The position numbers and the translations under genes were made by a program. A model generated the notes under the pieces. It was given only the letters and a program-made list of their open reading frames with translations, was not told where the DNA came from and ran no database searches. Shown one piece after another: positions 3,711 to 50,622 of a DNA stretch of 64,000 nt (position 1 is its first letter; every line of letters starts with the position of its first letter). Source of the DNA: Marsupella aquatica (Eukaryota > Plantae > Marchantiophyta); assembly GCA_973895155.1 (NCBI GenBank), contig OZ316894.1, positions 1,876,457-1,940,456 on the forward strand, written 5' to 3'.

Positions 3711-3712
3711 TA

Positions 3713-6625: not shown

Positions 6626-6971
6626 TAAAGAATACTATTCATTAACACGCAAAGTAGTACTAAAATAGTATCCAAGCAGAGTCCACCTGCCTTGTCACGA
6701 CTAAACAAATGGGTTTTGCTAAAATTTTGTCACGAAAACGCAATATTCCTGAAGAAAACCACCGAATCAATCATGAATACAAAAAGGGACTTAGAGGGAC
6801 AAGTGCACTCTGCAGATCAGTGCAGGAAGCTGACGATGACGATGTTGTAAGACTACTTCGATCATGCTCTTTGTCTCGAGAGTATTGTACTTTTGAAGTG
6901 TTCTCCAAGAGACCTGCACACCGTTCCTGATCGAACTGCAATCGGATGTGAGCTTTAGCAATAGGATTTTC

Positions 6972-19632: not shown

Positions 19633-20056
19633 TAATTCCTAAACTTTCTGTAATTTTTATTCAAAGAACATTCAGAATTTTTAGAATTTTTTTATTAAAA
19701 TGAATGCTGGATAGTTTGGTTATAAACTAAAAAAACTTATATAATTTGGTTTTCATCAAACTTTTTCATACCAAAATATTCAAGTTATATTTTTGAGTTA
19801 AGAGCTACTATAAGAGTTGAGTAACAGGAAAGTAACATTTCATGGTAGGTTGGATAAAGCGATTATAAAGAATTAAAAATTTGCCTTATAAAAAGCAAGG
19901 TTGTTGCACTGTGCAGATGAGTTTGATCAGTTTACGGGTTTGATCAATCATGCTCATTGTCTCGAGAGTATTGAAGTTTTTTAGTGTTCTCTAAGAGACC
20001 TCAGACCGTTCCTGATCGACATCCAGTCGGCAGTAAGCTTTAGTAACAGGATTGTC

Positions 20057-22858
20057 ATGGAAAATTTTCAGTTTCATTTCCGTGGGCAGAAGATAGACTT
20101 GCGGGGGGTGTTTCTGTCTTCTGCCATAGCAGTTTCGGTGGTGCTGGTAATCCACTACAAACTGAAAGGCCGACGTAGAAGCCTGGAAAATGATCGTCGA
20201 TTGCCTCCTGGACCCCGTCCATGGCCCATCATCGGGAATCTGGGGCTACTGGGACGTCTTCCTCATCTGGACTTTGCCAAGCTTGCGAAGGAGTATGGAC
20301 CTATCGTTTACTTGCGCCTGGGCACGGTCCCCACTCTCGTCGTCTCTTCCCCCAAAATCGCTGAAGTGATCCTCAAAACAAAGGACCATATCTTTGCCTC
20401 AAGACCAAACTTCGTTCAGGGCGTAATTATGGGGTACAATAGGCACACTATAGGCAGCGCGAGTCACGGACCGTACTGGCGGTACGCGCGTAAGATGATC
20501 ACTGTGGAATTGCTGAACGACAAACGACTCCAACAGTTTCAGGTACATAGCTCTTGGCTACGACATCAGCTTTAATTTCACGTCCATGGTTCACTGGACT
20601 GGCAAATCTGTCACGTTGGGTTTTTATAATTTGAGACCTTCTATTTTCATTTCCTTGCTCTGTGAAATACGTTCGTTCTAGAACTCTGAAGTTTTATTGG
20701 CTGCGGTTCATTTTGACGTCTGTTGTGCTAATGCTAGTCTGTAAAATAAATTATGTGATCTGCCGTCATTCGTTGGAATCGATGACTTTGCTTTGGTCAC
20801 TTCTGGCATAAGAGAAGAGAAGAGAAAAGTTTAGTTATGTACATTCATTTGGCTACATGTCTTTTGGGGGAATAGAAATGGTAATGTACAACAGTGTAGA
20901 GTGCCTACAGCTAACCTGCTAAGTCTCTGTTATTCTGTCCAGAGCCTGCGGAAAAAGCTGGTCATGCGTACTCTACAATCTATACTTGAAGAATGCAAAA
21001 TGGGAAAAGATGTGAATTTACACATAAAATTCGGGCTGATGACAAAGAACAACATCACTCAAATGATGATCAAAGAGAGCTTCTTCGGGCCCAATTCAAG
21101 CGCATCCAATATGAAAGAAGCTGCCGAGTACGATGAAGTCATAAATGATCTCGCCCGGTTGATGGGCGTTTTCGACTACGCAGATTACGTCCCATTGCTT
21201 CAGAATTTTGATCTACAAGGCTACCAAAAGAAAATGCAAAAAGTGCAACGAACGAACGACGTCTTCATTGATAAAGTAATCGACGAGCATCGGCAGGTAG
21301 CTAGTTCCAAGTCCTCTCGGGAGCTCACCAAGAGTGACCGGCAGGATTTTATCGATGTGCTGCTGACTCGTCCCAGCGAAGTCGATGACAAGCCTCTTAC
21401 AGAAGATCAAATCAGGGCCATCTTGCTGGTACAGTGAATCAATCGATTCAAATCACCACTATACTCACCGGTACCTCTATAATTCAGTTGGCGATAACAT
21501 ATTTCGCGCTGAACAATATATATGTCACAATGCTTACTCCATTGTTTGCCTATATTTATCCATCCTTCAAGGTGCTCGCAAACTTTCGTTTCTGTCTAAT
21601 TGTGTGCAAGATTCATATATAGTGTACCTCCTCACCAAAGATAAGTTACTTAACGAATGATCGATTGTAGGCGTGATTATGTAGATGGCAGGGGCAAGCT
21701 TGCATTCATATACGTACGGTAAACTTTACATAACCAACGCAAGCGAGTTAATATATGGCAGTACGTTGAGGCTTTCAGAAACTTACTCCCAATGCAAGAT
21801 CATTACTGCTGCTAATGATCCTGGTCGAAACTCCAGGGAGCTATGCACTTCTTTGCTCTCATCAAAACAAGATCGACTCCATAGGCGGTCGGGTTGAAGT
21901 GGTTCATATATGGCTGAAGCTTCTCATCGGGATAAGCCATGGGTTTATGGTTTAGAGTCGGGTAGAAACTGTCTCATGGCTGGTTGGAGGGCGGAGTATT
22001 TCACCGAGAGGCGTTGAAAGTATTTCATGTCCAGAAGAGGGTGCCCTCAAAGCTTGTGTACAATTATTAAATGAACACAATTTGTGTGGTCTTAAGTCGA
22101 AGGAATTAATGTAGTTCGGGGAAATTAATTAATTATGCAGTCCAGGATTGAGCTGATGCGTTGTTGATGTCCAATCATGCATCTAAAGTTTGCCTGTGGA
22201 AGTGCAGGGCTCCGTCGTGGCAGGGACGGTCACGTCAAATAATACTCTGGAGTGGGCAATGACGGAGCTTTTGAAACACCCGGCGGTTCTGAAAAGAGCC
22301 CGAGAGGAGCTGGATACCGTCGTGGGGTCAAACCGACTTGCGCAGGAGACCGACATTCCCAACCTTAAGTACCTTCGCGCTGTAGTAAAGGAGATCTTTC
22401 GGCTGCACCCCGTCCTTCCAATCCTGCTTCCCCACTATAGCATGGAATCATGTGAGGTAGCCGGGTACCACATACCGGTTAATTGTCAAGTGTTCGTCAA
22501 CGTCTGGGCTATTGGGAGGGACCCTGAAGTTTGGGAACGTCCTTTGGAATTTGATCCGGAGAGGTTCTTGAAGAACAATATGGATACCCTTGGGTTGGAC
22601 TTCGAGCTCCTACCTTTCGGCTCAGGCAGGAGAAGCTGCCCAGGAAGAGGCATCGGCCTCCTCATGGTGGAGTACACACTGGCGGTGCTACTTCACGCTT
22701 GCAACTGGCAACTTCCTCCAGGAGTCAGCCCCAAGGATGTCGACCTTGGAGAGGCGGAGGGATTGACTTGTCCTAAAGCTATTTCTCTTGAAGCGACCGC
22801 ATCTCCGCGCCTGCCCGTTGAGACCATCTATGGTGACAACATTTACCCCTCCTACTAA
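20057..22858 (+). CDS. cytochrome P450, CYP71 clan, copy 2; exons 20057-20542, 20943-21428, 22208-22858 (~540 aa)
   Basis: Same exon structure as copy 1 and a near-identical protein: AGTVTS, KEIFRLHP, DPERF, PFGSGRRSCPG. Confidence 0.95.
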
Positions 22859-24958: not shown

Positions 24959-25910
24959 GGGGGTCTCACTATATGGGGACCTCCCCATCACCTCCGACGT
25001 TTTTAGGCCTCGGACCCCCTAAAATGTAAGAAAAAATTATTATTTTTTAACCCCTATAAAGTTAGAATATTCTTGGAATATTCCAAAAATTGAATTTAAA
25101 AGACCCTATTGTTCTTATACAAAAATTCTTAAGTCTTCCCTTACAACCAATAAAATGACCCTATCCTTCGTCGCACGTGATATGCCATTTTTGTGGAAGT
25201 GAAACCCCCGAGCACCAAGCCCACCAATACCAGCACCAGTTGTCCAAATATGCTCAAGCATTATTGAAGGAAATCAATCATGTCGCAGAGAACCCATTCG
25301 CATGCTTGGGTGAAGCTATAATCTTCCATGGTGTCCAAAAACCCCGCCAAAAATACAAAGTGATCTCTTTAAGACGGGCTTTAAGACAACAAGGACATCT
25401 TTCAAACCTGCCTGTATAGAGAAGTGGTTGGACGAAAGGTTGGATGTATTAAAACACTAGATGGTGCTCAAAGTTAATGTGTAAATTATTGAATTACAAA
25501 AAATTCAAATTGACACCAAGTCCAGTTTTTGCATCGGGCCCCCCATCCTTTGAAGAGCAACTACATGGTGGCATCAATTCCTCACGGGGGGTCACCTCCA
25601 CGGAAGTGGCACATCACGTGCGACGAAGTATAGGCCCATTTAAATGGGTGTGGCGGAAGACTTCCAAAGTTTGGTAGAAGAACACATAGGGCATGTTTTA
25701 TTGACTGGTCGACTTTAAAGAACACATAGGCCTATTTAATTGCAAAAAATACTTTCTTTAAAGTTTTTAGGGGTTTTTTAATAAAAAATGACAAAATTTA
25801 AAGAAAGCAAGGGCTTTGCAAAAAAATGTTTTTTGAACACTTATAAATTAGGGGGGGTCAAACCCTAAAATGTCGCACGCAATGTATGGCCCTCCATATA
25901 GTGACCCCCC
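24959..25910. mobile_element. non-autonomous TIR element (MITE-like); second copy of its left end at ~55853-56125
   Basis: Left end gggggtctcactatatggggacc...cgacgtttttaggcctcggaccccc versus right end ggggggtcaaaccctaaaatgtcg...ccctccatatagtgacccccc form an imperfect ~60-bp TIR. No clear TSD. Confidence 0.65.
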
Positions 25911-28093: not shown

Positions 28094-29039
28094 TCAATCT
28101 TCAGTTTCATTAGTGTTAAGGGCAAGCGGCATATCGACAGTCTCCCATGGTTTAAGTACAACCTGGAGTTGGTCAAGAGCACTACACAATTGTCTTCGTT
28201 TCTTCTCAGAACTGCAGATGTCAATCATTGCCCTGAGATGAGTTTCTGTTTGCCGAAGGACGACCCAACCGGGGAGGCGACCCAAAAACTGAGAGTAAGT
28301 AGCGTCATTCCGTTCTTTCCAAATGCTGGAGCACATCTCCATAATCAATACCATCGGGCCAGGTTTCCTTTTATGCAACTGCACAGCAGTAATGATCGCT
28401 TCGTACAAAGATCCTTGTGAAATCTTCCAATCTCCAGCTCGTTGTAGAACACGTTGGACCTCTCCCCATCTACCAGTAACAGTAGGACAGCTGAAGAACA
28501 TGTGTTCAGTGTGCTCAAAATGAGTTTTACACTTAGCACATAAGCCATCCAAAACTCCCCAGTGACTAGCCCTGCCATTGGAGAAGAATCCATGATTCAA
28601 CAGTCTCCACAGAAAGAATCTCACCTTGGGGAAAGACCAGCCTCCCCAGATTTTCTTCCAGTACTGCTGCCAGTGCTGTGAAGAGCTGACCTGTCCCCAA
28701 CGCCGGTTCAGCTTAGTGACATCAAGCTCCCTGGTTAGGGTGCATTGGCTCCAAGTCCTGGTTGAGAAAGACCAGCCTCTATTCTTCCCCCCAGTCCCAT
28801 TGCCAACCGGCACAATCCTGCAGCTCAACCATGGCAATTTCCGAAAAACATTGTAGCTTGCTATAGAAAATGCTGAAAGCTTCGTTACCAATCCTCCTAG
28901 TGCTCCGGGTCCGACAACAGATCTCATCCTCCGGGATCCACCTGCCAAGCTGAGACCTGAGATCAAGCAGAGTCCTAATTCTACGATTAGCCAGAAACCT
29001 CCTCAAGTCCGTGCCCTATTGTGTCGTGGTTTGGGTGTT
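28094..29039 (-). pseudogene. LINE ORF2, 3' part (zf-RVT domain)
   Basis: WKKIW..PKVRFFLWR..CAKC..EHMFFSC..IWKERN. It rejoins the 5' part in frame once the inserted transposon is removed. Confidence 0.88.
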
Positions 29040-29360
29040 AACAAGAAGCCTTAAGGGATGAGTCCAAAGCCTTATTTCTCTTTTCAAAATCTTCATGATA
29101 TTAAAAAGTGTATACCAAAAAACCACCAAAAAATGGTATGTATTTTCCAAACTAGACTCAAGAGAATTTTACCACCAAAATCTAAGCATATCTTATATGA
29201 TATTCTCACAATTGTATAAACCTTGAAATATGCACTTTATAAAAGTAATCAAAATCAAACTCATCGATCAGAGTTTAAGTCAAACTCAAAGTTTTACAAA
29301 ATATAACCCAACTTAAGCCCAAGTGGTTTCAAATGCTACGAGTCCCTCTATTTATCTAGT

Positions 29361-32300
29361 CTAATCCAAAGGGACCGCTTCCCCTTCCTCGGTTCCAGAA
29401 GTCCCTGTCGTCAATTCTGGAACAATTGTGGCATCGTCAACCACGCTATCCTCTCCGGCCTGAGGAATGTCTTCCTCACTCTCCTCATCCATCTCCCCCT
29501 GTCCGTCTTCCTCTTCAATGTTATCTGCAAGGTTAAGAATCCTCCCTTTCAACACACTGCTCTGTCGCTCGTCAATCTCAATGGCAACGCAATGTCTCCC
29601 CATGGCCAAGGAGGAGGTTGTCCCAGTCCCTGATCCTGAACAAATATCCAAAACCCAGTCTCCAACCTGACTAAAATGACTCACTTCCCAATCTAACAAT
29701 GCACGTGGTTTCTGATAAACATTCACTGCCTTGTTATCCCCGTTGTGTTTCAGCTTCTTAGTCACAGCTGCGCATACAACCACATTGTTCCTTGATTCAT
29801 TTGTGTCAAAATTGAAGTGCTCCAATGACCGTTTACCATCCTGGCTGTGAAAGCCAATTGTAAAGCACTCAAAGTTGCTGTTCAATCTTGGTCCACCAGC
29901 ATTCTTCACATTATCCTTAACCCTGAAAAGTCACAAAAAGTCAAGGAGTTATTTAAACTGAGAAACATGGTTCATGAAATCATGAATAACTAATAGTTGT
30001 TTTTTTCAAAAACAAATATTTCTTACCACACACAATTCTGGAACCCTCCATTACACTCCGCTTTCAAAACGGTCTTGATGGCCTCATATTGGTCAAGGTT
30101 GTGGTGAATGATAATACGCCACAACTTTGCAGTAGTAGCCACCTTGAACGATTGGACCATTTTTGTGATCTCCTCAGTTCCCCATCCAATAGTGTCTTCA
30201 TGAAGACATCCAGGCAATGCAAACCCGTAGGGAATATCCACTAAAGCTAATGTGTAAGCCCGACCCGGAACCACCTCATGTAATCGCTGAGCATCATGAG
30301 TAAAAATATCATAGTGCACATCACCAAACTCTGGATGCTCAAACGAATTTGGATGAAGTTCCCCCTCTTGGGTTTGCCGACTAGAAGTCTTCATGGATAG
30401 CCAATTTTGGGCTTGCACAATATGCGCATTGAATTTGTCCGGGAATGACTTGAGATCTTTGCCTTCCTCATCTCCCTTCTTTTTCCGGGAGGTGGTATCT
30501 TTCTACAAAAAGGAACTATAGAATTAGAAACAAGGATTCCAAATATTAAATGAATTCAAACAATCATTCGAAGAAAGGTGACAGAATCTTACCCATGTCT
30601 GGAAAACAGGTACGAAATTCTTAAGCACATTGTCTGTGCAATGCTCAGGGTACTTGGTTTTACAACCTGACCAACTCTCCTCGTGTAGACACGTGAGGAA
30701 GGCCTTCTGCACCTGCATCTGAAATTTGTGTCGAGTAAATTCGTGACCCATTTCCTGTAAAGAGAGTTCTTTAGTAAGAACTCTCTGTAACACTGGGCAA
30801 ATCATATCAGGATCTTTCAAGGCCTGCATGTGTCTCCACTCTGTTAATTTCATGTCCTCATAAGGCAATTTGGCATCTCCAGACTTAGAGACTTTCTTCT
30901 TGCCTTTGTCTCCTTTTTGACCTTTGATCTCACACATCTCCCACTTGTCACAAATCTGCCTCACAAATGACCACACAGGATCTTGTCGGAATGCCAACTG
31001 AAATAGGTTATCATTGGCATTAAGAACCTCAGCATCCTTTCGTACACCCCAATCCTTGAGATTGATTTCAGTAGCACACTCTTTCTTGAAATCCTGGTTG
31101 GACGACAATCCATTCTCAACAAATCTCATGTGAATATAATTTACTCTCTGGATTGTCGTCATCTGTTGTCGAAATTCAGAATCAATATTGTGACTCCACG
31201 CCAGGTTTCTTGCCTCTTGCACACTCAATCCCGCAAATATCCAAGATTGCACTCTCCGAAATGCCTTGTTGTTAGGGAACTCAAGAGCAAGGTCTGCTTT
31301 GGCACAGGCTGAATGGTTGCCCCCAATCACATAATAATGGTAATCAGCTTTCCTTGAAAAATCAAAGTCTTGCCTAGTAGCACACTCCTTCGGATCCACC
31401 AAGAGGACAAACGGAGCTGCAAGTGGACTGGCACCTACAGTCTTCATCCGCAAGGTCAATTGGGTCAAGAAATATGGTTGGATGTGTCGGACCTGGTAAA
31501 TGGGCAAGCCCATAGCCTTCTCTCTCACTGGAGGGTAAAGTTGACCAATGTCAACGGTCACGGTCTCCTCTTGAACACCACATCTTCCCAGAATCTCCTC
31601 CTGGTACAATACCCGTGCATCCATTGACATTGATTGAGCCTTTTGCTCCAAATGCGTTGGAATTTTCTCCAAAGTCTTCTTTTTTGACTTTGTAGCACTG
31701 GGCTCGGTAGGCTCAGGAGTCATAGCAGGTCGCTTCTTTGAAGAAATGCGAGTTCCAGTCGTACCTTGTGCCGACCCACCAGTCAAAGCCGTTCCCTGGG
31801 ATGATCTGCCAACTTGAGATCCCCCTCCAGATGCTGCTGCTTCCCGGGAGGTTGTAGGCGCTACCACGGTCAAAATATCATTGGGTAAAATGCTAGGCCT
31901 CGATCCAGAAGGAACACCGGAAGCCCCAGATTTGGGTGGACGACTTACTCCCTTCTCTGCCGACCTTTTCCGGAGAATCTCTCTTGATTTTCGGATTGCA
32001 CTCTTTAAAGTGCTAGCGTGAAATTCAAACACAAAACCGGAAATCTTTCCCGCGACGTCGTGGTAACGTTCCTCACTCGAAAGAGACTTGACAGTCTCAA
32101 TGATGCTATCGATGTCCTCATCGAGATAGCAGGTGGCAGCCGTTCCAGAAAACCTCTCCACATCCACGACAATCAAAGTTGATGTTTCCTTCGTTGTGAT
32201 CAACATGTTCACAACTTCGTCGCCCCGTCGAAATACATCGATGCGGCCGTAATTTACCCACCCTAATGCCCCCGATGGAAGCCCCTCAAATACACACAGC

Positions 32301-32422
32301 ATTAGGAAGGGCTTCTTCCATGTTTCCGTCCCTAAGGAAATCGTCCAGGATGAGTTGTGGAAGTCCGTCAAAGGATGGCGCGAAAAGATGTCATCCACCA
32401 GCTCTTCCTGCGACATTGTCAT
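29361..32422 (-). CDS. ParB/Srx-like domain + beta-class amino DNA methyltransferase (N6_N4_Mtase-like); exons 32422-30593, 30502-30027, 29922-29361 (~955 aa)
   Basis: GT-AG introns 30592-30503 (phase 0) and 30026-29923 (phase 2) join three ORFs into one open frame of 2868 nt. ParB-like motifs: YQVR, YVIGGNHS, EARNLAWSHN. MTase motifs in beta order: IV LALVDIPYG, WVK, YQKP, I VLDICSGSGT, GRHCVAIEID. Confidence 0.85.
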
Positions 32423-33201
32423 GTTTTTGCCTGATCTTCAAACCTGAGAACATACCACAAAATCAGTCCACTTCAACCCCAACCTGCGAGACAAAGTGCC
32501 ACAGAACCAAGGAATGTGCCAACAAATGGCTACTAAAACCGTGTCCTTACGGATCTAACAACGCTCTCGGCCACCCCAGGACTCCTATCATGAATTCATG
32601 AAGGGAGTCTCCCTCTCGCTCCGACCTTCATGAATTCATGAAGGGAGTCTCCTCTCTCTTTGCTTGTACACCTCGGTGATGCAGAAGGGTATTTAAAATA
32701 GGGTTCGGAGGGGGGTGACGTGAAGAAATCACCCAGGGCCTAAATTACTACCTAAAACAGGGTCGAAATGAAGTGCGACCGCGACAACTCGCGACACGTC
32801 GCCGATGAGTGCTGAAAATGGCACGAAATTGGACAGCGAGATTGTTTTTCACTCTTTTACAAAGGAAATCCAAATGACATTGAGTGAAAATGAATGGGCT
32901 GCCCCGTGTTCCTTGGTTATACATACTAATCACGGATCAGGCGCGACTTAGTAAAATTAACCCAGAATCATGATAAATCAATGTTTTTGGGCCAATTATT
33001 CATGAATATTTCGGGGTATTAACGGGAAAAAGCTTGCAAATTTCATGAATATTTGATATTTTTGAAGTTAAAAAGTCCCAACAATCCGTGAAAAACTATA
33101 AATAGGCTCATTTATTCATGACTCTTGGTCATTATTTTGAGAAGATTTGTTAGATTTTACTGATTTTCTGAGTTTCTTGTCAATTTGCACTAGTTTTTCC
33201 A
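32423..33201. promoter_or_regulatory. divergent intergenic/promoter region of the transposon with palindromic repeats
   Basis: Lies between head-to-head ATGs (32422 minus, 33202 plus). It contains a TATAAATA at 33097-33104 and a 25-bp direct repeat tcatgaattcatgaagggagtctcc at 32588 and 32628. Confidence 0.55.
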
Positions 33202-35438
33202 ATGGCGGCGTGTTACGAATCAGATGATTATTCAGATGGAGTTTCTGATGATGTTTCATTGCCGGATGGCCCCTGCACAGTGGTTGGCCCAGATATCCCT
33301 GGAATAACTACTGTTTTAGATATGCCACCCCCCACCCCTATGAGCAAGTTAAAACGTAGTCCTTTACGACTTGCAATTAGTGGGAAGAAATCATTGGTCG
33401 GTGGTAAAGAGAGGTCAGGGAGCTCCTCTGACTCCTTGGAGAGTATTGGTCCCCCTGGACGTCAAGTTGTATCTCCTTTGTCACCAACAAAGGACAAATT
33501 GGGGAGTAATCTGGAAGGTTCAATGCCTATTTGGATGTCTGGGAAACGGTCTCATGAATTCATGAAGACTGGATTTGGAAAGACGAAGAAGGCACTAAGT
33601 GGGGAAAATGACAGAGATTTTTGCAGTCTCCAAAGTGTTCAGCGGCTGAAGCAAATGCCAAAAAGTAAAACCTTTGGTAAGCCAACGTCGGAAACATTTC
33701 ACAGGGGGATGAGGGAAGAAACTAGACGACCAGTGTTATTGAACAATCCAAAGAACGTGAGAAACTCGCGAAGCATCGTAAGAAATGTTTTTCAAATTCT
33801 GATAAATATTTGGGAGTTGTCATTGATGGGATGGATCAGAAGAAGACAAGGTTGCCTCATTGGCCGCGGCCCCCAAAATCGGTGGACGAAACATGTTTGA
33901 TCCAAATGCACGTTGTCGGATGCCTGGTTTTCAATGGTGCATTATTTTCAAGAGTGTTTCTTAATTATCCTGTATTGCATAATGATGGAAACTTGACAGT
34001 CACAATCCTGCAAAGGGTGTTTCACAAATGGGAAGAAAAGCCTGGTGGCTTGCCGCCTGTTCTCTATCTTCAACTTGATAATACCAGTAGAGAAAATAAA
34101 AATAATTTACTCTTTGCCTATCTTCATATGTTGATTCGAAGAAAGGTTTTTCGGAAAATCAAACTAGGATTCTTGTTGGTTGGACACACACACGACCAAA
34201 TAGATCAAATGTTCAGTCGATTTTCTAAACGACTAGCAAGGTTTAAGGCATTCACATACGAAAGCCTATGTGATATTATTTGTGAATCATATCAACCCCA
34301 ACCAAATATCACTCTTTTAAAGGAAACATATGATTTCCGTCAATATGCCTTCTCAGATCCACCTTTAGTCATTGAAAGGATTCGAAATGTTACCTTCCAC
34401 CACCAGTACAAATTTGCATTTGACAAGTTGGAAAATCAAGTTCCAACCCAATGGGGGAAGAAGTTTTCCACGGACTCAACTTGGAAACCTGACGGAGGCG
34501 TGAAATTTTTGAGGGAAGAGGAGCCAGAAAAGGTGATGGGTTGTGCTCCCGGATTACCCCTTTTCAAAAAGGGGGATAAGAACGTTACAAGGACTCAACC
34601 AAATATGTCTAGTTCTTCAAGAATGACTTTGAAGGAGATGGATGATTCGTTAAATGAGATTCAAAAGGGAATACTTGCAGTTGAAACTTTATTCTCAGAA
34701 GAGGAAGTGAACTGGTGGAGAATGTTTTTTGAAGAGCAACGGGAATTGAATAAATCTTTGCTCCTTGATCAAAGACCATTGATTTTCCCTTTTCAATGGC
34801 CACGCTCCCAAAGGGAGATTGCTGTTGCTGCTGAAGTTCCCAGAGTCCTTGTCAATGAAGAGGAAATTGAAGAGAGAGTATACGGACCTACCAGAGATAT
34901 ATACGTGGGTCCTTATCGGAATCAAGGAAAGATAGATGCAGAGAAGGAGAATATGGAAGGAGACTTTTCGGATCTTGAAGTCAACACTTATATTTCTGTT
35001 GCTGGAGAAGAATCGGAAACATTTTGGGTGGCCAAGGTGGAAAGAATTGACCAGCGCGACGAGTTCAACATTCCAAAAATGATTTATGTTTTATGGCATG
35101 CTACAAAAACCGGGTCAGATCCTTGGAAAGCCAAGTACTTACCAGAAGTCTTAAACTACGAAAAGAAGAAAAGTGGTCGTGGGAAAGGAACTTTGAAACC
35201 AATATGGTTTCACCAAGAGCTTGATTTATCTTCAACGACTGTTTTTGCTTACAACTTCATGTTGACAAAATCTGATACATTGTACAAAAAGACAGTAGAT
35301 CGAATCAAAATCCGATTGACTGAATTTTTGGCAGAAGAGAAAGAGCAAGAACAAGAGAATGGATCAACTAGAACCCCGCTAGGAGATAAATCTAGGGATA
35401 TTTCGTTTCAAGAATTGAGGACTTCTGGATCTGAGTAA
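33202..35438 (+). CDS. Sola-like DDD/RNase H-fold transposase, with the N-terminus out of frame with the catalytic core
   Basis: The core frame is open from ~33726 to 35438 and contains YLGVVIDGMDQ, LYLQLDNTSRENKN and FLLVGHTHDQIDQMFS (three candidate catalytic Asp). The upstream ORF 33202-33900 is in another frame. It lies inside the TIRs. The superfamily assignment is by motif resemblance. Confidence 0.75.
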
Positions 35439-35997
35439 TGAAAAGTAGTTATTGTTTGTGACATTACCATTGAAAAACATGGATAACTTGAAAATTTACA
35501 AATTTTCAAAATGCCTTTACCACTTATTCATGAATTCATGGTTAAAGTTTCTTGAGAAATTTGTAGTTTAATATTATCTTAGTGGGTTGTGTTTCAATTC
35601 AATTAGATGGTGTCATTTCTATTCTCCTTGTCTTCTTTTCACAATAATGTGTATCAGGTTAAGTTGTAGTAATTTATTTTCTGGTTTTTAAATGACAATG
35701 GCTTTTGGAGGTGATTTAGTTGTTGTTTCAAAAGACACCTCGTGTAATTGTGAGACCATTGTAGATAATAGTGTTGTATTTGAGATCATTTATTGGTGGA
35801 ATGTAACTTCAGATGAATTTGGTCATTTTTAGGTGTCAAAACATAGCTAGTTTATGTCATATTTTGTTCGCTCCATATTTTTGCTCTAAAATAGGTGCTA
35901 ATTTTTGCACTTTTTTTGACTTTTCGTTGTTTTTCTGATTTTTTGGCTAGAGTTCCTAAAGTATGGGCTTGTTACTCATCATTTAAGGCTTCTTGTT

Positions 35998-38924
35998 TGT
36001 TGCGCAGGTACAGTAGCACAACTTGTTCAATGGAGAGATGGGATGGAAGCTTCCCTTGTCCAAAGTTGAAAAGAAGGTGGCTACTCGCATTGTTCCAACC
36101 CTTAAGCAGACCCCGCAGTGTAGGGGAGCCCTGGATCTTCAGCTCATCACCCTGCAGCAAGGCTTCAGTAACAGTCCACCTTCTGCGCTCCTTCTTGCCC
36201 TGTCCAGAGTTGCAGCACTTCTTAATGATCTCCTGTGCCATCTTCACCCATTCCCTGTCCGCCCCAATGATGAGTTTAGAGATATGCCTCATCTTTAGTG
36301 CTTCGGCCTGTTCTTCAAAGGGCTGAATTCCCAGTCCCCCTTGGCCCTTTGGTGTAAGCAACGACAGATTTTTTCCATCTCCATAAATCCAGTCTTGTAG
36401 AGCGACAATGTCATCAGGTGATAGGTTGGAATTGACCTCAAGACGTGCTTCATCAAAATAGCTCTCCCAACCATAGTCAGACTCCGATAAGTCCAATGGT
36501 TCAGCCGACAACGCAATTTCCCGACCAGGAAGGCAGCGGCATGAGTGGGCGCACCTTATACCCAATAGGGCACCCCAGATACTCAATGACTTCCCCTTCC
36601 TTGGCGATTCTGCATCCAGTGTTCTTCATCCACTCTGGGTAGTGCCCTTGCATAAAGTAGATCGGTATAATCTGAGATTTCTTCACATTCAAAAGAGCTC
36701 CAAAGATGTTCTCATACTGTTGCACTGTCTTCCTAGCTTCCACAAAGTCATTCTCCGTTGCTACCAAGAAGAGGCCTGTGTCATCCGCGAACAGTTGATA
36801 GCAAATGTTGTTGTTGTTGGCAACTTTCAATCCTTGTATATGCCTTGCCTCCAGTTGCTTCTTAAAGAGTGCCATCAGTGGTTGAGTCGACAGAGCAAAG
36901 AGAAGTGGGGACAAGGGGCAGCCTTGCCTCACCCCCCTCTCCAACTGAATGGGTTCTGTGAACCTCCCATTAACGTGAACTTTGGATTGAGTATTAACCA
37001 CTAGCCCCTGCACAAGCAGAATAACATGCTCATCAAAATTCATCGCCCTCAGCACCGCCCACAGGAAGGAATGAGCCACCCGATCGTAGGCTTTGGTGAA
37101 ATCCAATTTGAGGAACACAAGTGGCTGCTTGCTGAGTGGCGCATGCTCCTGGGCCATCTTGAAGGTCAACAGGTTATCCAAAATGTCACGGCCTTCCAAA
37201 AAGCCCGTCTGTTGTGGATCCACCAACTTACTTGCCACCCCCTTGAGACGATTGGCCAGCAGCTTTGCAATCAATTTCTCAGTCAGGGTAAGCATGGTAA
37301 GAGGTCTCCAATTGCTCAGCTCCTACGTGTCTCCATTCTTAGGAATCAACTTAATGACACCGGCGGAGGCCCTAGTAGTAAGCTTTCCATCCTTCCAATA
37401 TGCATGGATCATAGTGACACAGGCTGGCTTCATGAAATCCCATCCCTTAATCAACATTTCTACTGTCATACCATCCAGCCCAGGGGATTTCTCCTTGGGC
37501 AGGGTGAAGACCATCTTTTCAATTTCCTCCTCACTAGGTAGTCGCCCAATTTTCTGGTTGTCAGCTTGTGTAGCCTTAGTAGAGATCAGCCCCAACGCCT
37601 CCCCTAGAGCATCCTGATGCGTCAGAACGTGTGTGTCTGCGGTGTACAATTTTGAGTAAAATTTATGTATTTCCCCAAGGATAATGGTCTCATCTTCGGT
37701 AATTTCCCCATTCCCTCTCTTCAGCTGCTTGATGCTCTCCTTAGCATGCTTCGCTTTGAGCTGGTTGAAAAAGTACTTGGTAGGAGCTTCCCCTAGAGTT
37801 AGCCATCTCACCCGACTTTTCTGTCGCAACTTGATGGCATCCGCTTTAGCCTGTTCCCTAGTTCTATCCTCAATCCTATCCTCAATCCTGCCAAGCTCGT
37901 CCAACTGGTACTTAGAAGGATTTGCCCCCAGCTCAGTTCTGAGCTTGTTCAGCTCATCCCCTAGGTGCCCAGTGTTCCTTTTTGCCGCTCTCTTTCGCTT
38001 CTCCCCCTGGAGTAGCTGTTTAGTGGCCCCCCAACAGAGGTCCCAATTCACCCTGGGATCCCGGTTCTCCACCCAGTTTTCCTTCCATACCCGTTCAAGT
38101 TCCTGTTTCATCTCAGGAGACTCAACTAATTTTGCATCCATTTTGAAATAAGTGGCCTTCCTATGTGCATTCAAGGACAACTTTTGTCGTAACACAAAGG
38201 TGGTCACCACTGGGACATGGTCGGAGATGGTCTCCCTACCGTCATGCATACAAGATTTCACATACTCACACCATTGATTTCTATTACTGCTGTAGTTGCG
38301 ATCCAGACATGACTGGTCGTAGCGGTCAGACTTCCTAGCTTGCCTGGTGTAGTATGGACCAGTACGAGTGCCTGCACAGAGATAATTGTCCACCAAATCT
38401 AGGTGGTCCACTAATCTGTTCTAGGCTCTAGCCTCTGAGCCATGGATGAAGGCCGATGGGCCCACTGCATCATCGAATAAATCGGTCATGTTCCAATCTC
38501 CCCCAAAAATCCAATTCGACTCCTTCAGGTTGTTGCGTAGCCACTTCCAGAGAGAGGTCCTTAGACGTCTCTCGTTCGGGGCGTAAATAGAACCCACACT
38601 GATCTCTCCCACGCAAGTCTTAATAGTTGCCCACACAAAGGATCCGTCCCCTTTACACCCGTGTTCCACAATCTGGTATTGCTTGGGGATCAACAGAGCA
38701 GCTCCAACCTTTCCTTCCCCCTTCTGATCTACTAATTTAGTCCCTTCATGGTCGATGAGACCCAGTTGAAAAATAGCCCGCTGCCTCTTAACCTTAAGTT
38801 CCTGGAAACAACAGATAGCCAAACCAAGCGTGTTGTTGTGAATCCATCTGTTGATCTGTTTAACCTTCAAAGGGTCTCCTAGCCCCCTCACATTCCATTG
38901 GCAAATGGTCAATTCGTCATTCAT
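35998..38924 (-). pseudogene. LINE ORF2, 5' part (APE endonuclease + reverse transcriptase)
   Basis: WNVRGLG, FQELK, IYAPN, GGDWN, SDHVPV, KSPGLDG, LDFTKAYDRV, GVRQGCPLSP, LFADD, YLGCP. It contains stops and frameshifts. Confidence 0.92.
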
Positions 38925-40810
38925 CTAAGACCATTGTTATTTTGGCCCACTGTCTGTCTGCCTAGGCCGGTCCCCCTCTCTCCCGAAGTTGATTTGATCT
39001 CCGTCCCGTGGACTCCCTTCTCATCCACTCCTTTCCTAGGTCCCCGGTCCAAATTGTTGTTGGTGTTAAGCTTGGATTGTTCATAAGTGAGCATCCTCGG
39101 TCCAGTGCCGTCGGGTCTTTCTGTGACATGGTACGGAATTTCTTCCGGGAGAATTTCAGCCATTCTTTTATCACTGGCGAAGGTTGGGACAGCCCCAGTA
39201 TGGGTACTCTTCCTGGTTTTTTTGGGTTGTTGTCGTGCTAGTGTGCCAGTCTTTGTTGGGGATGATTCCTTGCCTGATCCCCCAACATTCGGTGGGGATT
39301 GTGCTGCTTTCCTAGAGTTCTTCACTACCTAAGTATCCATAGGTTCTGCTCCCTCAGTTTCCGAAAAGCTGACCACAAAACCCGGGGGTATCAGGTCCAT
39401 AGTCGCTGAAATATTACTGGGAATAGCAGGTTTCAAGCCTTCTTCACCTGGCTCCATACTGGCTTGCTGCCTGAGGTTGTCGGGTGGGGTTCCTGTGTGG
39501 ATCCTTAAGTTTCCTGCTTCGTTTCCCACTCCTGTCTCCATCATAGCCGGATTGGACGCTGGAGCGATCTCCCCTTCTTCCAGATCATTCAACATAGCCA
39601 GAGCACCAAAAGGGTTCTCACTCTGCCCGAGATTCGTTGCTGTTTCTCCTGCACCCTGCTTCCCTTTGTGTGAAGCCCTGGTTTTCACTATTGTGTACCC
39701 TTCTGTGTTTCTCTACTCCTGCAGGATCCCCTGTTTGTCTGTTGGTGTCGGGGGTGACAATTCTGGCTGCTGTCCTGCTGGGCTCTTTCTCAAGCTGGGC
39801 TTGTTGGGGCAGTATCTTGCAATGTGTCCTCTCTGCTTGCAAGCAAAGCAAGCGTCTGGCAACGTCCTGTATATAACATCCACCCTGTATCTACCAACTC
39901 CTGGTATTGTCAGATCAATATATTCTACTAGATCCTCATTCAGGTTGCAAAGCACACATCCACGTATATGTGAGAATTTGCTTCTAGCCCTAGCAGTCTG
40001 TGCATACAGCACCTTACCAACTCTAGCTAGCATCTGATTAGCATAGTACTCAAAGGCTGGGTTGAGCAAAGGAAGATCTACCCACACGGGTGCTTTAGTG
40101 GATCTCATTGCTTTGGCATCAAAATCAGGTGTCCACGGCATAGCAATGACCATCTTCCTGCCCATGCTAAGATAAGGCTCAAGTAGAATCGAGGTTTGGT
40201 CCTCTGGAGTGGATACCACAATCAGAAAAGTGTACCTAGCCAATACTTTGATTTGTTCAATGGCAATATTCATTCGAAGCCCAATGACCTCGTGGGCCCA
40301 TTCTTCAAAGTAGTCTCTTGATGGGTTGAAATCTACTGTATACATTATGATCCCCCTATTTTGTAAATGCAGGATACGACTCGCTACAATATTCTTTTCT
40401 ACAACCAAAATTTCTGACCTCATTCCTGGTGATGGATGCTCTGGGACCTGCGGCAGATGTGCCAGTTGCTCTCGCAGATCTTCATTGGATACATATATCC
40501 CGGCTTCTTTATCGAGGTTGTTATCGTAAGGGTTATCCTCCTCCTCCTCCTCCACTTGAAAGTCCACCAGGTCATCGTCTTCCGCTGGATCCCACACTGG
40601 GTCTTTGAACCCAAAGCTACCCCCCCTTTGTTGGCTAGTGCCAGCTGCTGCCATCGCGTACGAGCTTGCATTTTCCTCTGCCTGATGCGCCTGCCCTCTA
40701 TATGATATTCCATCCTGGCAATCATGTGTGCGTGGGCTTCCGTTGTTGTCTCTGGCTGTGCCACTAAGGGGAATAATTACCTCCGAGCACATAGTGTCCT
40801 TGCTCAGCAA
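38921..40810 (-). pseudogene. LINE ORF1 (DUF4283-like region + CCHC zinc knuckle), interrupted
   Basis: APVWVDLP and CFACKQRGHIARYC motifs. It continues through 39329-39688 and 38921-39325, and its stop overlaps the ORF2 ATG (ATGA). Confidence 0.85.
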
Positions 40811-42399
40811 TCCTTGGGCCCCATGCTCTAGTTTCTACCTTCAAGTGTACGTATATAATTATGTAAAAAGAAATGTCTTGAACATGATGTAGGATATAGT
40901 AAACACTTAATTAGAATATGCTTAGTTTGAGCCTCTCTCACTAGAGTGTACAGTCATAATTATATTAATATTCATATATCTCATTTTGACCCTTGATTAT
41001 CATTGTAGATATTATGACATTTTAAATTTATGATTTGAGTATTATTGACATCTGATTCTTGGACCAATTTAATTTTAATTTAATTTGTGCATTAGTTACA
41101 ACATATTATTTTATTTAATATTTATTGATTTTATTTTAATATCTATATTTATAAAATTTTAAGGGAAATCTGTGAAACCCCACAGAAAGGAAGAGTCGGC
41201 CACAATAATTGAACCCAACACCTATCAATCTACTCAAGTGAGTTACCACAAAGTCATGCCTCTAACCAGATTCAATTTAATATTAAATATTAAAGATTTG
41301 GGAATCAAAAAGTGTATTTATTTGGGGTGAAAAATATTCATTTGGGGGCTCATTTTAAAGAGTTTTGGGTTGAGAAAAAACAACTTTAGTCTTCATTTCC
41401 TAGACTTTTAAAAGTCAAGTTTTAATGAATACACTCCAGTGATATGTATCTACTCCTTTGGCCAAATTGTTGGTATTGGTAGAGCATCATCCCATGCCAC
41501 CTCCCAACCCTCAAAAGAAAAATGATTTATTTGGCCTCCTCAGAATCTCAACAATAAAAAAATTATTTTATATTATGTGAGGGAATGACTGTGCAGGTTA
41601 CCCTATTTCCTAGGACTCAGTTTGACTTGGTACCCTCCTTTTGGCAAAGGCAAGAGTCTGTCATACTCCATACCCCTATCAGGTAGGGCACTCTCATGCC
41701 TGCACAAGCAATCAAGAAATGAACACTGAGAGTCAAAATCTGGCCAGTGGACATAGTTTATAACTTGGGGCGCAAGATGTAGTAAGGGTTCTTCACATCA
41801 TTTAAGAGATATGCAGTTTTGCAGTCTCATTCATAAATTATCCTCAGTGGGTTATTTGTAGGGTAAGCCATTTCTTAAGGGGTTTAGTTGGGCTGTATTC
41901 CCCTAAGGAGTCACAGGCCATGGCCCCAAAGAGAGGATGGGTTACCCTTGGGGTTACTTCACCTTATGAAGTTGTTGTATGCTTTGTGTAAACACCCCTA
42001 CTAAACCACATCCTCTCAAAGGGATAGGAAGCTAAAAAAAACACATGACAAATGATGTATCCTGTGATGACATATGGCACTCTGAATGATTATCCCTTAC
42101 TTGCTTTATCGTGACTTCTAAGTACTTCCCTAATAGAACAACTCTTAATTCGTTCTCATATGATTGAGTTAATTTATGGAAGTGACCCCAGTGGTTACCT
42201 GAGTGGGATCAGATTGTGGCAGTAACACAGATATTTAAATGAAGGAATCGCGAGTCTGGTAGATGAGAGCCTTGTGCTCCATATTAACCGTTAATGAAAA
42301 TACAAACTAATGTCACAACAAAGGTGTTAGGACAATCATGGGTATATGCAAAAATCAATCAATCTCAAGTTCTAGATGTCATTCCAGAGTCCGTCGACT

Positions 42400-45300
42400 T
42401 CCTTCACTCGAGTACTTCAGACTGGCATGGGCTGGATAGCAAGCTCCACTCCAGAGGCAAATACACTCTGTACCTATACCTTGCTCTCTCAAGTTATTAA
42501 GGTCAGGTGTATCGGTGCTTACATGTAAGTCGTAGTGAGATGATGAACGCAGACGCACACAATCAGCTTGGCCATTTCAATCCCCGGACACATATGAGAC
42601 CCAGTATTGAATGGAAGGTAGGTATATGGTTTCGGGGGCACCTGCAGAAGTTTCCCCAACCGAAAGAGGTCAAGTATGCCGAGTGAAAGTCTTCAGGTCA
42701 GCTGCACGAACTCATTTAGGAAAACAAAATTTGCGTTTTAACTGTAACATAATATCTTTGAATCAAATCCTGATTGAGGAGGGAGGCAGTCCGATACTCA
42801 CATCGAATCGATCGGGGTTGAAATTAAGATCGGGATAATTGGCAGGATCCGTGTGAGTGAAAATGGTCAACGGGGCCACGATCCAACCCTTTGGTATCAG
42901 CTGACCTGCATGATGGATAGAGTTTATGGTCCGATGATAATCCATAGCTACAACATGTTCTAGTCGAAGAAAGAACCTTGTGCTGGCACAGACCCGCAGA
43001 GCTATATTCGTCTGAACGTACTGTGCCTAGATCGTATCCGAACCCAGTTATGCACAATCTGGAGCTGGCAAATTTTGGCGGCAGCGTGCGTGGACATTGA
43101 AAGTCAATTATTTCGCAATCCCACTCAAGAACAACACGCGAAGCTGTTGCAATGGTAGGATTGCACGATAATTTAACAATCTGGAAACTCAGATCACTCA
43201 CCTTCAAACTTCACGTCTTCGACTGCCTCCTTGAAAATAACAGGAAGGATTGAAAGACTTCTCTGGATTTCATTAAAAAACTGCATCCGGTAATTCAGAA
43301 GTTAATAACGCTGCCAATCGCGTGAACTTTCGAGAATTGTCACAACTCAGCATCTAAAATATATGTAGGATTGCAGCGGAATTCACCTGCCTACCAGGTT
43401 GGAACATCCGCAAGTAAGGAGCCGCTCTCTAAATAAATGATATTATACTAGTGTCAATTACAATCCAGTCGGGAATCCACTTAATTTGGATGTTCAGGGA
43501 TAATTAGTCATGCATGCTACCTTGTGAGTGTAAACCATTTTCCTCGTGTCGTCCCAAGTAAGCCTGGGCCCTTCGACGGACGGGTCTTTGTTTCTGAGAA
43601 TCTCCTGGTGCTCAGCCTGCTCACATGGTATGATGGTTAGTACTGTCAATAGATCGACGATCTGAGAAGAATGGACCAGATAAAAGCTGAGAACCACATT
43701 CCTCGTCGAGAGGCTGGGCTCTCTGTCCGGGTCTCTAGCTCTCAAAGCTAGCTGACACACATCTAATTGAGTATCGACCAACAGGCTAGGGTGAAATAGG
43801 GTGCTTTCAAAATTCTGTTACCAATTCAAGCTCCGATCCAGACCTCCGAGAGTTCCAAACGGCCATGCCGGATTCAAACGGAGAACCAAAGCATGCTCCG
43901 TACCTGGCAACGGCGAAACACCTTTGGATAGTCGATCAGATACTTAAGGACCCATACAAGAGTCGTCGCGGTATTGTCATAAGCAGCAAAGCTTAAGAAA
44001 TACATATTATCGGCAAGCGTGAGATCATCGAGATGTTTCAGCTCTTCTAGTCCTTCAGGGGTATCCCGAGCTGCCAGTAGAACTCCTAAGAAAACGTCCT
44101 TGGAAATCTTTTGGCCCTTCGTCCCGTCAATCAGAGCTCTGATATATGCGATGACATTTGCACGTGCCTGATGAAGACAACAGCCAATCAATCAAATGAA
44201 GGTGTTGAGGACAATACAAATGCAGAGATTTAATTGCCATTCTCGATCTCGCTAGCTTTCGAAAACTCTCATCCAAATTTACCATTCTCGATCTCGCTTT
44301 CGAAAACTCTGGGAAGGATTTGAGATTTGACAATCCTTCATAGTTGAAATCTATCTACCTGTATCTGACGTACTTAGACTTCAGTTTGCGGAGCAGTCAC
44401 GTTCAAGAGCCTTACTAACGGAAGATCTTAATTTCAAGTCGAAACAGTGTGCAATAGCCTCGGGTAAGATTCAGTTTCAAGTCCAAACTGCTGGCCAGAC
44501 TTCCGACAGTTGAAAGCGTACCTTCAAGCAATTGCTATAAGTTGTTCCTGGAAGATTCACTGGAATCGATCCGATCATGAGCTTCTGAAAGTTTGCGAAA
44601 TTCTTCTTGCCTTCTGGTGAGCTACTTCTGTTCTTATCTCCGAATAGAACCCAATTGCTGATATCCCACGTAATCTGCCAGTTGACATAAATGACTCACA
44701 CATCAGTACCAAAGTTAGTTTGCAAGAATGTCGAAGAGAAAAGAATGAAGACGGAAGAATTCATTTAAATAAAACCAAAGACGAACAAGAAGAGAATCGC
44801 ACAGAAGTACTAGGTACTCGAAGAAGAAGACGAATGCGCTCAAGACGACAAAAATGAATTGAAGTGAGTGATTAATGAAAGTAGGTTTAGGATTGAAATT
44901 GAACGGCCCTACCTTTTGCGTTGCATCGACTCCATCGACAGTTCCAGCGCGCACCCACGAGGCCATGTTTTCGAGAATAATGCTCTCAACAGAATGGACC
45001 TGATGCCGGAGACTGTCTGGACCAAAGAATTTCAGGACCAGCTTCCTGATAGACATATGTGGCGGACCGTCCTGGAGTAAAAACGCTTTGGGTCCTATTA
45101 TTTGCTTCAAGTTTTCGGGGAATGACCGTCGGAAGAGGTGGGGGCTGGTATTGACGAATTTGGAGAACTCCGGAGTTGTTCCACATATCGTTGGCAGTAG
45201 AAATAAGTTCGTTTTAAACGTACTTCCATACCTGCAGTGATCAACTCACAACTTTCAGATATTGTGGTAACGTACTTCCATACCTGCAGTGATCAACTCA

Positions 45301-48936: not shown

Positions 48937-49630
48937 TCGGATTTAAGTTTCGCCGTTTTTTCACTTTTTCTGCATGTTTGGCGATTTCGACGATTTCGCG
49001 ACTCAATTTGGGTCGTAACTTTCTCCAGGAGTTCGGATTTGGGAGTTCTTGACGGCTTTGGAAAGATCTTGGCGAGGCGATGAAGATCGATACGACTTGC
49101 ACCCCAAACGGTTACCGTATGAGCGAGTTACATCGGATTTAAGTTTCGCCATTTTTTCACTTTTTCTGCGCGTTTGGCGATTTGGGCGATTTCGCGACTC
49201 AATTTGGGTCATAACTTTCTCCAGGAGTTTCGGATCTGGGAGTTCTTGACGGCTTTGGAAAGCTTTCGGCGAGGCGGTGAAGATTGATACGACTTGCGCC
49301 CCAAACGGTCACCCCATGACCGAGTTACATCGGATTTAGGTTTCGTCTTTTTTCACTTTTTCTGCGCGTTTGACGATTTTGGCGATTTCGCGACTCAATT
49401 TGGGTCTTAAATTTCTCCAGGGGTTTCAGATTTGGGTGTTCTTGACTTTGGAAAGATCTTGGCGATGCGGTGAAGATCGATATGAATTGCGCCCCAAACG
49501 GTCACCAATTGAGCGAGTTACATCAGATTTAGGTTTCGCCGTTTTTTCACATTGGCTGCGCGTTTGGCGATCTTGGCGTCTTCACGACTCAATTTGGGTC
49601 AACGTATGAGCGAGTCACATCGGCCTTAGG
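48937..49630. repeat. ~196-bp tandem repeat (~3.4 units) at the 5' end of the CRE-like element
   Basis: cggattta.gtttcg restarts at 48938, 49134, 49331 and 49524; the units are CpG-rich. Confidence 0.9.
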
Positions 49631-50622
49631 CCATCGCTTTCTCCTCCAATTGGTTGTCGCCTTCGGGAGCTGTAGCCGCACGCTCAATCCAGAGGATGAA
49701 TCTTCACTCGCGTCGACTCCCCAGCGGACAGCTAGACGGGTGCTTCAGCTTTGTTTCTTACAGTTCCTGCACCTGCTCAACGGTTTCCTAGGCTAGCGGT
49801 GGCGCCGTTTCTCGGCCTGATGCGGTGGGCTCTCTCCATCGCCTCCCCTTTCTTTTCACCTGCCTCGGTTGGGCCTTTTGTCGCTTCTTGATGCGTTTTT
49901 GCTTTCATCGGATTGCGACCTATCATGTCTGCGTTGAGAGTGTTGGCGCGGGGCAAGCGCCCAGCCCCACCCCACACTTCTCCCCCATCCTCCCCTCCCC
50001 CTCGTGGTCGTCTTCGTGTTTGCTCTTCTTCATTGGATCTCTCTCATCTTCATGATGACCCCATGCCCGATGCTCTGCCAGTCCCCCCGTCTACTGCCCA
50101 CCCCATCGTCGCCCTGGCTCCTCTCCCCACCCCATTCCCTCTCCACCCATTCATCATCCTCCTCCGGCCTCCTCGTCCACATCTGTTCCACCCCCACCTC
50201 TTGTCCAGTCTTTCCCTGCTCCCTCCCCGGACGAGCGTCCCCTGCATACTTGTCCTGACTGTGGATGGGTTGGCATCTCCCTCCCTCATCATCGCGGGCG
50301 GGGCCGGTGCCATCGTCGCCAGCAAGCCCAATCCCAGCCTCAGCCCCCTATTGACCCGGTTAGCTCTGCCCCTCCCTCCTTGGAGACTCCCGAGCAGGCA
50401 TGGAGTTGGGTTCGCACTCTTGACCCCCTTCCAGTCTACCATCCAAGGTACATTAGACCTCGCCTTTATAACCACATTCCTCTGGCGCTGCGCCCTTTAG
50501 TTCGGTCCTCCTTGTTATAACTCATGCAGCTTATCTTGGCGCATCCTATGGAGGTCTCCTACTGGTCTTTACTGATGCTTTTTCCATAGTGGTCTCTTAC
50601 CCTCCCTAGTCATGGTGATCGT

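Follow-up and report, generated by a model that had tools for sequence, protein, structure and literature searches.

A predicted ParB-methyltransferase gene and a candidate palindromic recognition site in a DNA transposon of the liverwort Marsupella aquatica

The element and its two divergent genes

The window analysed here is a stretch of 64,000 nucleotides from the liverwort Marsupella aquatica (NCBI GenBank assembly GCA_973895155.1, contig OZ316894.1, positions 1,876,457 to 1,940,456 of the forward strand). It contains a DNA transposon with terminal inverted repeats (TIRs), inserted in a long interspersed nuclear element (LINE). The transposon carries two divergent genes, a DUF7869 transposase and a three-exon gene whose product is predicted to join a ParB/Srx domain and a helix-turn-helix (HTH) region to an amino-methyltransferase. 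It also carries a palindrome, TCATG-N4-CATGA, that is a candidate for the site read by this protein. The limits of the element and the parts of the interrupted LINE are as follows.

28094..29035, minus strand: 3' part of the host LINE (zf-RVT), severed by the insertion (PF13966, empty site)
29036..29039, plus strand: left 4-bp target-site duplication (TSD), TGTT (sequence, empty-site joint)
29040..35997, unstranded: TIR DNA transposon, 6,958 bp, inside the LINE (inverted arms, TSD, empty site)
29040..29071, plus strand: left TIR (inverted-repeat search)
33202..35438, plus strand: DUF7869 transposase-like gene with an internal deletion at 33743/33744 (PF25273, E 2e-51)
35966..35997, minus strand: right TIR (inverted-repeat search)
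35998..36001, plus strand: right 4-bp TSD, TGTT (sequence, empty-site joint)
36002..40834, minus strand: 5' part of the host LINE (DUF4283, endonuclease, reverse transcriptase), with stops (domain search)

The inverted arms are 32 nt long and 84% complementary. The empty LINE site was recovered in contigs of runs X2 and X4, two samples of one study, where 29035 connects to 35998 with an overlap of four letters. Five contigs of X2 depart at 29040 into unlike flanks, and depth is high and flat over the element in four runs; in X1 the contig depth lies at about 500-600 inside the element and at 15-28 in the flanks, a difference that is not to be read as a copy number. This pattern suggests many young copies of the element. 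A 4-bp TSD and TIRs fit the Sola group, but the TGTT target of this one insertion does not fit AWWT, given as the Sola1 hallmark in PMC3845634, and another flank ends in ACAA, a loose end. Sola membership is left as a candidate assignment; for the transposase, DUF7869 was the only match.

The transposase of this copy is internally deleted, because past 33743 the contigs of all four runs carry other letters and because in full-length homologues 280-395 aa precede the position from which the second frame matches. A copy broken in this way would move in trans. The head-to-head layout of the two genes recurs in L002, one of the metagenome relatives of the element, and in Riccia the gene R1sor_010796, of the ParB-methylase family, adjoins the DUF7869 locus tag R1sor_010795.

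The ParB-methylase gene lies on the minus strand and is joined by two GT-AG introns (30592-30503 and 30026-29923) into one open frame of 955 aa. The fusion of exon 1 to the methyltransferase depends on these introns, and it is backed by the continuous frame and by the relatives L001 and L002, in which both introns fall at identical codons. The initial annotation had described a ParB-like module and an N-terminal domain fused ahead of a methyltransferase, and the spliced frame bears this out; PF01555 occurs in the same chain in 9 of the 56 homologues scanned, in 8 of them above the cut-off. The motifs it had named (YQVRHI, YYVIGGNHS, EARNLAWSHN, KKRP and KSKKK) are all present where it had placed them on the minus strand. 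An additional intron interrupts the N-terminal domain in both relatives (L001 ~1009-1124, L002 ~2090-2310) and is absent from 30593..32422. The word GGTTGTGTGTATACAC upstream of the gene is common to L001 and L002. All features of the gene listed below are on the minus strand.

30593..32422: exon 1, aa 1-610 (homologues stop at the identical donor)
31952..32422: N-terminal domain, aa 1-157, beta strands and three helices, weakly PH-like (model)
31628..31951: disordered Ser/Gly/Lys linker, aa 158-265, with basic clusters KKRP (aa 229-232) and KSKKK (aa 245-249), a possible nuclear localisation signal (unconserved)
31190..31588: predicted ParB/Srx domain, aa 279-411 (VIA and Foldseek)
31498-31481: YQVRHI, aa 309-314
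31336-31310: YYVIGGNHS, aa 363-371
31310..31324: Box II variant GGNHS, aa 367-371, with G368 and H370 conserved and the catalytic Glu and GxxR Arg absent
31216-31187: EARNLAWSHN, aa 403-412
30713..31171: predicted ParB-type HTH region, aa 418-570 (VIA, profile alignment)
30027..30502: exon 2, with the methyltransferase motif IV variant DIPY (spliced-frame translation)
30238-30227: DIPY, aa 699-702 (exon 2)
29361..29922: exon 3, with the motif I region and an acidic tail (PF01555 match)
29648-29628: DICSGSG, aa 861-867 (exon 3)

Exon 3 matches PF01555 with 35.3 bits, above the cut-off of 26.7. DIPY (aa 699) precedes DICSGSG (aa 861), which is the IV-before-I order of beta-class enzymes, and by these sequence signatures exons 2 and 3 are predicted to encode a beta-class N6/N4 methyltransferase. 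Motif IV reads DLPY or DIPF in homologues, and the order of the motifs is conserved from Chara and Riccia to Ginkgo and a sea cucumber. A profile search collects 582 proteins at E<=0.001. The closest named homologue is from another liverwort, Calypogeia fissa (48% over 90%), and among 20 proteins looked up the family includes members from Chara braunii, Riccia sorocarpa, Ginkgo, Ptychodera, Saccoglossus, Holothuria, Actinia and Clastostelium. A tree of 48 of the 139 rows, those of at least 200 aa, gives no support for the order of the deep clades, and therefore no donor or transfer is claimed. Pattern scans of prokaryote genomes and viral contigs found no relative, and a tblastn search of phages with exon 3 returned six weak methylase matches only.

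A predicted ParB module and its nucleotide pocket

The structure of the protein was modelled with AlphaFold2 from an alignment of 14 rows (mean predicted local distance difference test score, pLDDT, 72; predicted template-modelling score, pTM, 0.38). The model is folded over aa ~1-157 and 266-610 and disordered between them (158-265, pLDDT <50), in agreement with the globular domain of about 150 aa and the Ser/Gly/Lys-rich linker that the initial annotation had described ahead of the ParB region. In a VIA structure search of 48,161 chains, all 8 rows with Z>=5 have the ParB/Srx fold: PadC, KorB, SerK, pNOB8 ParB, two sulfiredoxins, SbnI and Atu1540, the last of which we take to belong to this fold. 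PadC is the top row (Z 9.5, root-mean-square deviation (rmsd) 2.8, 94 residues aligned, aa 279-411) and KorB the second (Z 7.9). Foldseek returns 7 matches at E<=0.001, every one of them to Noc or ParB (E 2e-5). The model thus argues strongly for a ParB fold of aa 279-411, and the ParB/Srx assignment, which had been open to refutation by profile and structure searches, is upheld by the structure searches.

Sequence comparison sees far less. No Pfam ParB family was found in the protein or its parts, in 14 close homologues or in 56 more distant ones, and the scans of the homologues gave one weak DUF6551 row (E 0.019); NCBIfam finds no ParB in 39 homologues, and comparison with the sequences of the PDB finds none either. 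Against a reference profile of 24 chromosomal ParBs from parS-bearing loci, HHalign scores the whole region no better than a reversed control. The nucleotide domain by itself scores 17.2 (probability 1.6%), with 1 of 40 shuffles as high. In the profile alignment the boxes proposed earlier are in register, QVR with QPR, GGNHS with GERR and HN with EN.

Behind the nucleotide domain, a ParB-type HTH region is predicted with moderate confidence. The VIA row next after those with Z>=5 is the DNA-binding domain of KorB (1r71; Z 4.5, rmsd 4.1, 107 residues aligned, model aa 411-568), and the SopB DNA-binding domain follows with Z 3.4. The region aligns colinearly with the 24 ParBs with a score of 22.7, reached by 0 of 40 column shuffles, at an HHalign probability of 7%. 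Because of the VIA matches and the colinear alignment, the nucleotide domain and the HTH region would form a module, of which the HTH region is the element that the initial annotation had not separated. Its putative recognition region is nearly invariant across the close clade. The model places helices at 555-610 after the HTH region, and comparison with C-terminal dimerisation domains gave no clear match. The ParA-binding motif (L/F/I)G(K/R)G(L/F/I) was not found by eye in the translation, and the element has no third gene. One homologue of the HTH region, P0050, is fused to sterile alpha motif (SAM) domains.

The nucleotide pocket can be compared with that of MxParB, in which R54, R95 and N127 bind phosphate while Q52 and E93 serve hydrolysis, according to PMC13229309. 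The position of Q52 corresponds to Q310 (Q in 31 and E in 17 of 60 rows), so that the Box I Gln is present; that of R54 is R312, kept in 54 of 61 rows; and that of N127, in Box III, is N412, found in 84 of 87 rows and invariant in a 39-row alignment. In Box II H370 is near-fixed (85 of 90 family rows), whereas the catalytic Glu and the GxxR Arg are missing. The position of E93 is N369, with Glu in 0 of 90 rows, and that of R95, the GxxR Arg, is S371, with Arg in 2 of 90 rows, although 15 of 90 have an Arg one place later. The initial annotation was therefore right that GGNHS lacks the canonical arginines. Changing the GxxR Arg to Ala abolished nucleotide binding in the binders tested in bioRxiv 10.1101/2025.10.10.680097, where nucleotide preference was not predictable from sequence. 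A ParB-fold partner of a DNA-modifying enzyme is also described as functional with its nucleotide residues mutated (PMC13229309). The family-wide loss of the GxxR Arg and the catalytic Glu makes a sliding clamp that hydrolyses cytidine triphosphate (CTP) doubtful, and a canonical CTPase clamp is unlikely. The pocket is nevertheless under selection, with half of it kept across eukaryotes.

The N-terminal domain is modelled with confidence when folded alone (pLDDT 95). Its VIA rows are nearly all PH, PTB or EVH1 folds; none reaches Z 5, and the best are PH folds (Z 4.5, rmsd 3.7 over 87 aligned residues). No Pfam match, no Foldseek match at E<=0.001 and no Atlas match was found; weak Foldseek rows to the RFTS domains of DNMT1 and DIM-2 (E 0.1, TM ~0.25) were weighed and are kept as a weak lead only. 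The domain is missing from all 19 long distant homologues tested and is therefore an addition peculiar to the close clade; its most likely role is in protein docking.

In the Atlas, the neighbours of aa 280-610 are DUF3723 (PF12520) clusters of fungi, with feature scores of 0.95-0.96, while the PF12520 profile matches none of the homologues scanned (14 and 56). DUF3723 is described as a conserved auxiliary gene of Starship elements without an assigned function. The similarity suggests, as a lead only, that DUF3723 is a ParB-HTH module.

The candidate site and the reading of the element

Among the 64 palindromic hexamers, TCATGA is the most over-represented in the element, with 16 occurrences against 3.8 expected (0 of 1000 shuffles as many), while the rest of the window has 23 against 23.9 expected. 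Its extended form TCATG-N4-CATGA occurs in four exact copies within the 6,958 bp of the element and in none within the other 57,042 bp of the window. L001 has three copies and L002 four, and in each of the three elements 0 of 300 shuffles match the count; the 1,244 bp of L003, which lacks the site-bearing regions, contain none. It is the only palindrome of the form 5-N(0-12)-5 common to the element, L001 and L002. Agreement at fourfold-degenerate positions among the three is 26 of 69, 20 of 76 and 33 of 96 (26-38%), so that silent sites are saturated and the sharing of the site is not explained by inheritance alone. The sites, none of them stranded, are the following.

29972..29985: TCATG-N4-CATGA in intron 2, exact; also in intron 2 of L001 and L002
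32588..32601: upstream site 1 of the ParB-methyltransferase gene, exact
32628..32641: upstream site 2, exact, spaced 40 bp from upstream site 1 (L001, 42 bp; L002, 40 bp)
33108..33121: one-mismatch site behind the TATAAATA box ahead of the transposase gene
33552..33565: site in the 5' transposase frame, exact
35528..35541: one-mismatch site, ~460 bp from the right end

A half-site lies 53 bp from the left end. Behind its own TATAAATA box, L002 carries a TCATGA half-site; the corresponding part of its transposase frame holds two sites, one exact and one with a single mismatch. Sites stand just downstream of the TATA-like boxes of both divergent genes, and they are not packed at the termini. Their arms are fixed and their centres vary (AATT, AAAT, CTAG, ATAT, ATTT), which fits a two-headed DNA reader. 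From its sequence and distribution we consider TCATG-N4-CATGA a parS-like or operator candidate whose putative reader is the ParB-HTH protein. The upstream sites are also embedded in longer palindromes of 28-32 bp, perfect or nearly so, which have CCT/AGG by the arms and are prone to cruciform formation (L001 306-378; window 32580-32649). A reading of the palindromes as RNA hairpins was dropped, as the arm letters are fixed and show no covariation. Apart from the sites, the element shows no stronger depletion of CATG than the LINE control does, and the observed/expected ratio of CpG (0.60 in the element, 0.58 in the rest) gives no sign of a footprint.

The reading we prefer, and hold with about even confidence, is that a dimer of the protein reads the arms of the palindrome, tethers the methylase to its own element and marks DNA near the promoters. 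The protein would be an accessory of a plant cut-and-paste transposon, composed of a ParB domain, an HTH region and a beta-class amino-methyltransferase. Its dimer would bind the element's own TCATG-N4-CATGA sites via the HTH regions, and N6-methyladenine (6mA) or N4-methylcytosine (4mC) would be placed locally on the element, near both promoters, where the marks may shield or regulate it. There would probably be no CTP-hydrolysing sliding step; the ParB domain would act in dimerisation or bridging and may still bind a ligand via R312, H370 and N412.

Several points weigh against this tethering model. DIPY departs from the canonical motif (D/N/S)PP(Y/F). Sequence profiles scarcely detect ParB in either the nucleotide domain or the HTH region, so that the mapping of residues leans on a weak alignment and on the fold. 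The structural model itself comes from few sequences and has a low pTM, and its recognition-helix region (458-469) has pLDDT <50. The site test covers three related elements, two of which, L001 and L002, are incomplete and contain stop codons. The strong conservation of R312, G368, H370 and N412 argues that the pocket still binds something, and the reader of the palindrome could be the transposase or a host factor.

Conservation of the pocket is also an argument for the mechanism put forward in the initial annotation, a nucleotide-gated clamp that loads at palindromes, slides and spreads methylation. The nucleotide domain and HTH region stand in ParB order, the palindromes are the size of parS, the four residues are conserved across eukaryotic homologues, and 15 of 90 rows have an Arg one place after the GxxR position. 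Set against this are the loss of the catalytic Glu and of the GxxR Arg, given that the Arg-to-Ala change kills nucleotide binding in the ParB-fold proteins tested, and an insertion of about 15 residues ahead of Box II; in addition, nucleosomes and the bulky fused methylase would be expected to impede sliding. Of the load-and-spread idea, a palindromic loading site gains a candidate together with an HTH region to read it, while loading and sliding driven by CTP finds no support in Box II, and we consider the clamp as a whole rather unlikely. It is decidedly unlikely that the palindrome is read by the transposase or a host transcription factor and that the ParB-methylase has no sequence-specific self-recognition. 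The near-site toward the right end and the half-site near the left end would suit a transposase, and the positions near both promoters are where host factors bind. Most sites are internal, however, in intron 2, the upstream pair and the transposase frame, rather than in terminal arrays; the 57 kb of flanking host DNA, with several genes, has no exact site; and the protein has a predicted ParB-type HTH region of its own.

The protein might instead be an operator-binding repressor like KorB, acting on its own transcription and that of the transposase, with a methylase that is weak, inactive or tunes operator binding. The sites downstream of both TATA-like boxes, the rank of KorB in the VIA search and the non-canonical DIPY and DICSGSG motifs speak for such a repressor. 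Yet the conserved order of the methylase motifs argues for catalysis, and an intron is an odd place for a simple operator; we judge this very unlikely. A broader proposal is that of a nuclear self-recognition system akin to parS/ParB, with loading at TCATG-N4-CATGA, a non-canonical switch (R312, H370, N412) and anti-silencing amino-methylation spread over the transposon. The ParB-HTH module, found from Chara and liverworts to marine invertebrates and with a fold perhaps identical to that of DUF3723 of fungal Starships, would then be a means by which cargo transposons of eukaryotes in general mark themselves. As a whole this proposal is unlikely.

Should the protein indeed bind and modify its own element, land-plant transposons would carry their own sequence-targeted 6mA/4mC writer, which would bear on the disputed origin of 6mA and 4mC in plant DNA and on the escape of elements from silencing. 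The family also presents a ParB fold with half of its nucleotide pocket retained across eukaryotes, and it hints at a possible function for the Starship gene DUF3723.

The rest of the window contains tandem P450 genes, a copia fragment and the LINE with DUF4283, besides several repeats. The two three-exon cytochrome P450 genes (6897-9731 and 19985-22858, plus strand) are 91-97% alike and ~13.1 kb apart, and an ORF at 44715-45245 (minus strand) resembles by eye the N-terminal P450 exon of another family, with no Pfam match at 0.001. The copia-type long terminal repeat retrotransposon fragment (1041-3779, minus strand; gag, integrase) has in-frame stops. A frameshifted GC-rich reverse-transcriptase element of another non-LTR type lies at 50590-53056 (plus strand; RVT_1 at 51155-52060). 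A very high-copy short repeat, resembling a miniature inverted-repeat transposable element, occurs at 24959-25900, 41170-41263 and 55854-56125 with a depth orders of magnitude above the flanks, and has inverted arms at 25110-25208 and 25586-25684; a ~196-bp tandem repeat is present in four copies at 48937-49619.

Comparison with known systems

Two algal papers of 2025 put forward, as an untested proposal, that ParB proteins encoded by transposons bind the elements from which they come and modify them; the statements below refer to the accessible text of the papers cited. The nearest system is Sola1-1_Ec32 of Ectocarpus (PMC12477816), in which a 1104-aa ParB-like protein with an N4/N6 methylase lies opposite the transposase, and similar proteins are cited for green and red algae. 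As here, ParB and methylase are in one protein, encoded on the strand opposite the transposase in a TIR element, and the protein is proposed to bind its own element and modify it. Compared by description, that element is 21.5 kb long and has no site named in the text, whereas the land-plant element is 7 kb; the clade-specific N-terminal domain, the mapped HTH region, the degenerate Box II and the defined conserved site set the liverwort element apart from it.

In the Plavaka transposons of Bostrychia, which carry PAG3 and PAG2 (bioRxiv 10.1101/2025.02.11.637652), a ParB-oxygenase, PAG3, stands beside inverted-repeat arrays. A ParB-like accessory protein, inverted repeats as its proposed sites and a PF01555 methylase on the same element are shared with Marsupella. 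In Bostrychia, by contrast, the fusion partner of ParB is a 2-oxoglutarate (2OG) oxygenase and that of the methylase is a SET domain, the elements are of EnSpm type, and the repeats are tandem arrays beside the gene rather than dispersed single palindromes. ParB-HTH methylase fusions are also reported from chlorophytes and chytrids (PMC4738411). Phage and prophage fusions of ParB with N6_N4 methyltransferase likewise place a ParB fold ahead of PF01555 (bioRxiv 10.1101/2025.10.10.680097); the liverwort protein has a long HTH-containing region in between and, as stated above, no prokaryotic or viral relative by pattern scans. Marchantia MpDN4MT1a/b (bioRxiv 10.1101/2021.02.12.428880) are prokaryotic-type beta-class amino-methyltransferases in a bryophyte too, but they are host genes with TSPPY in place of DIPY, which make 4mC in sperm, and no ParB is mentioned in the text, whereas the gene described here belongs to a transposon.

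The bacterial CTPase clamps ParB, Noc and KorB have the same succession of nucleotide-domain fold and HTH region, and a palindromic site of similar size. The protein of Marsupella differs from them in lacking the catalytic Glu, the GxxR Arg, a ParA motif and a parA gene, and in having a fused methylase and a nuclear host. VANC, an anti-silencing accessory protein of the Arabidopsis VANDAL elements, likewise binds short motifs that have built up in the element encoding it; it is an unrelated protein, induces loss of 5-methylcytosine and carries no methylase.

A literature search brought up no publication describing such a land-plant element or the TCATG-N4-CATGA site, although chapters, figures or supplements could hold one. 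The element provides a defined 14-bp site that is evidently under selection, a domain predicted to read it and, in a land plant, a compact gene that is intact; with these the proposal of the algal papers becomes directly assayable. The architecture as such is of a known kind; what is new is a land-plant member, the additional N-terminal domain, the loss of Glu and Arg from Box II and, above all, the conserved candidate site.

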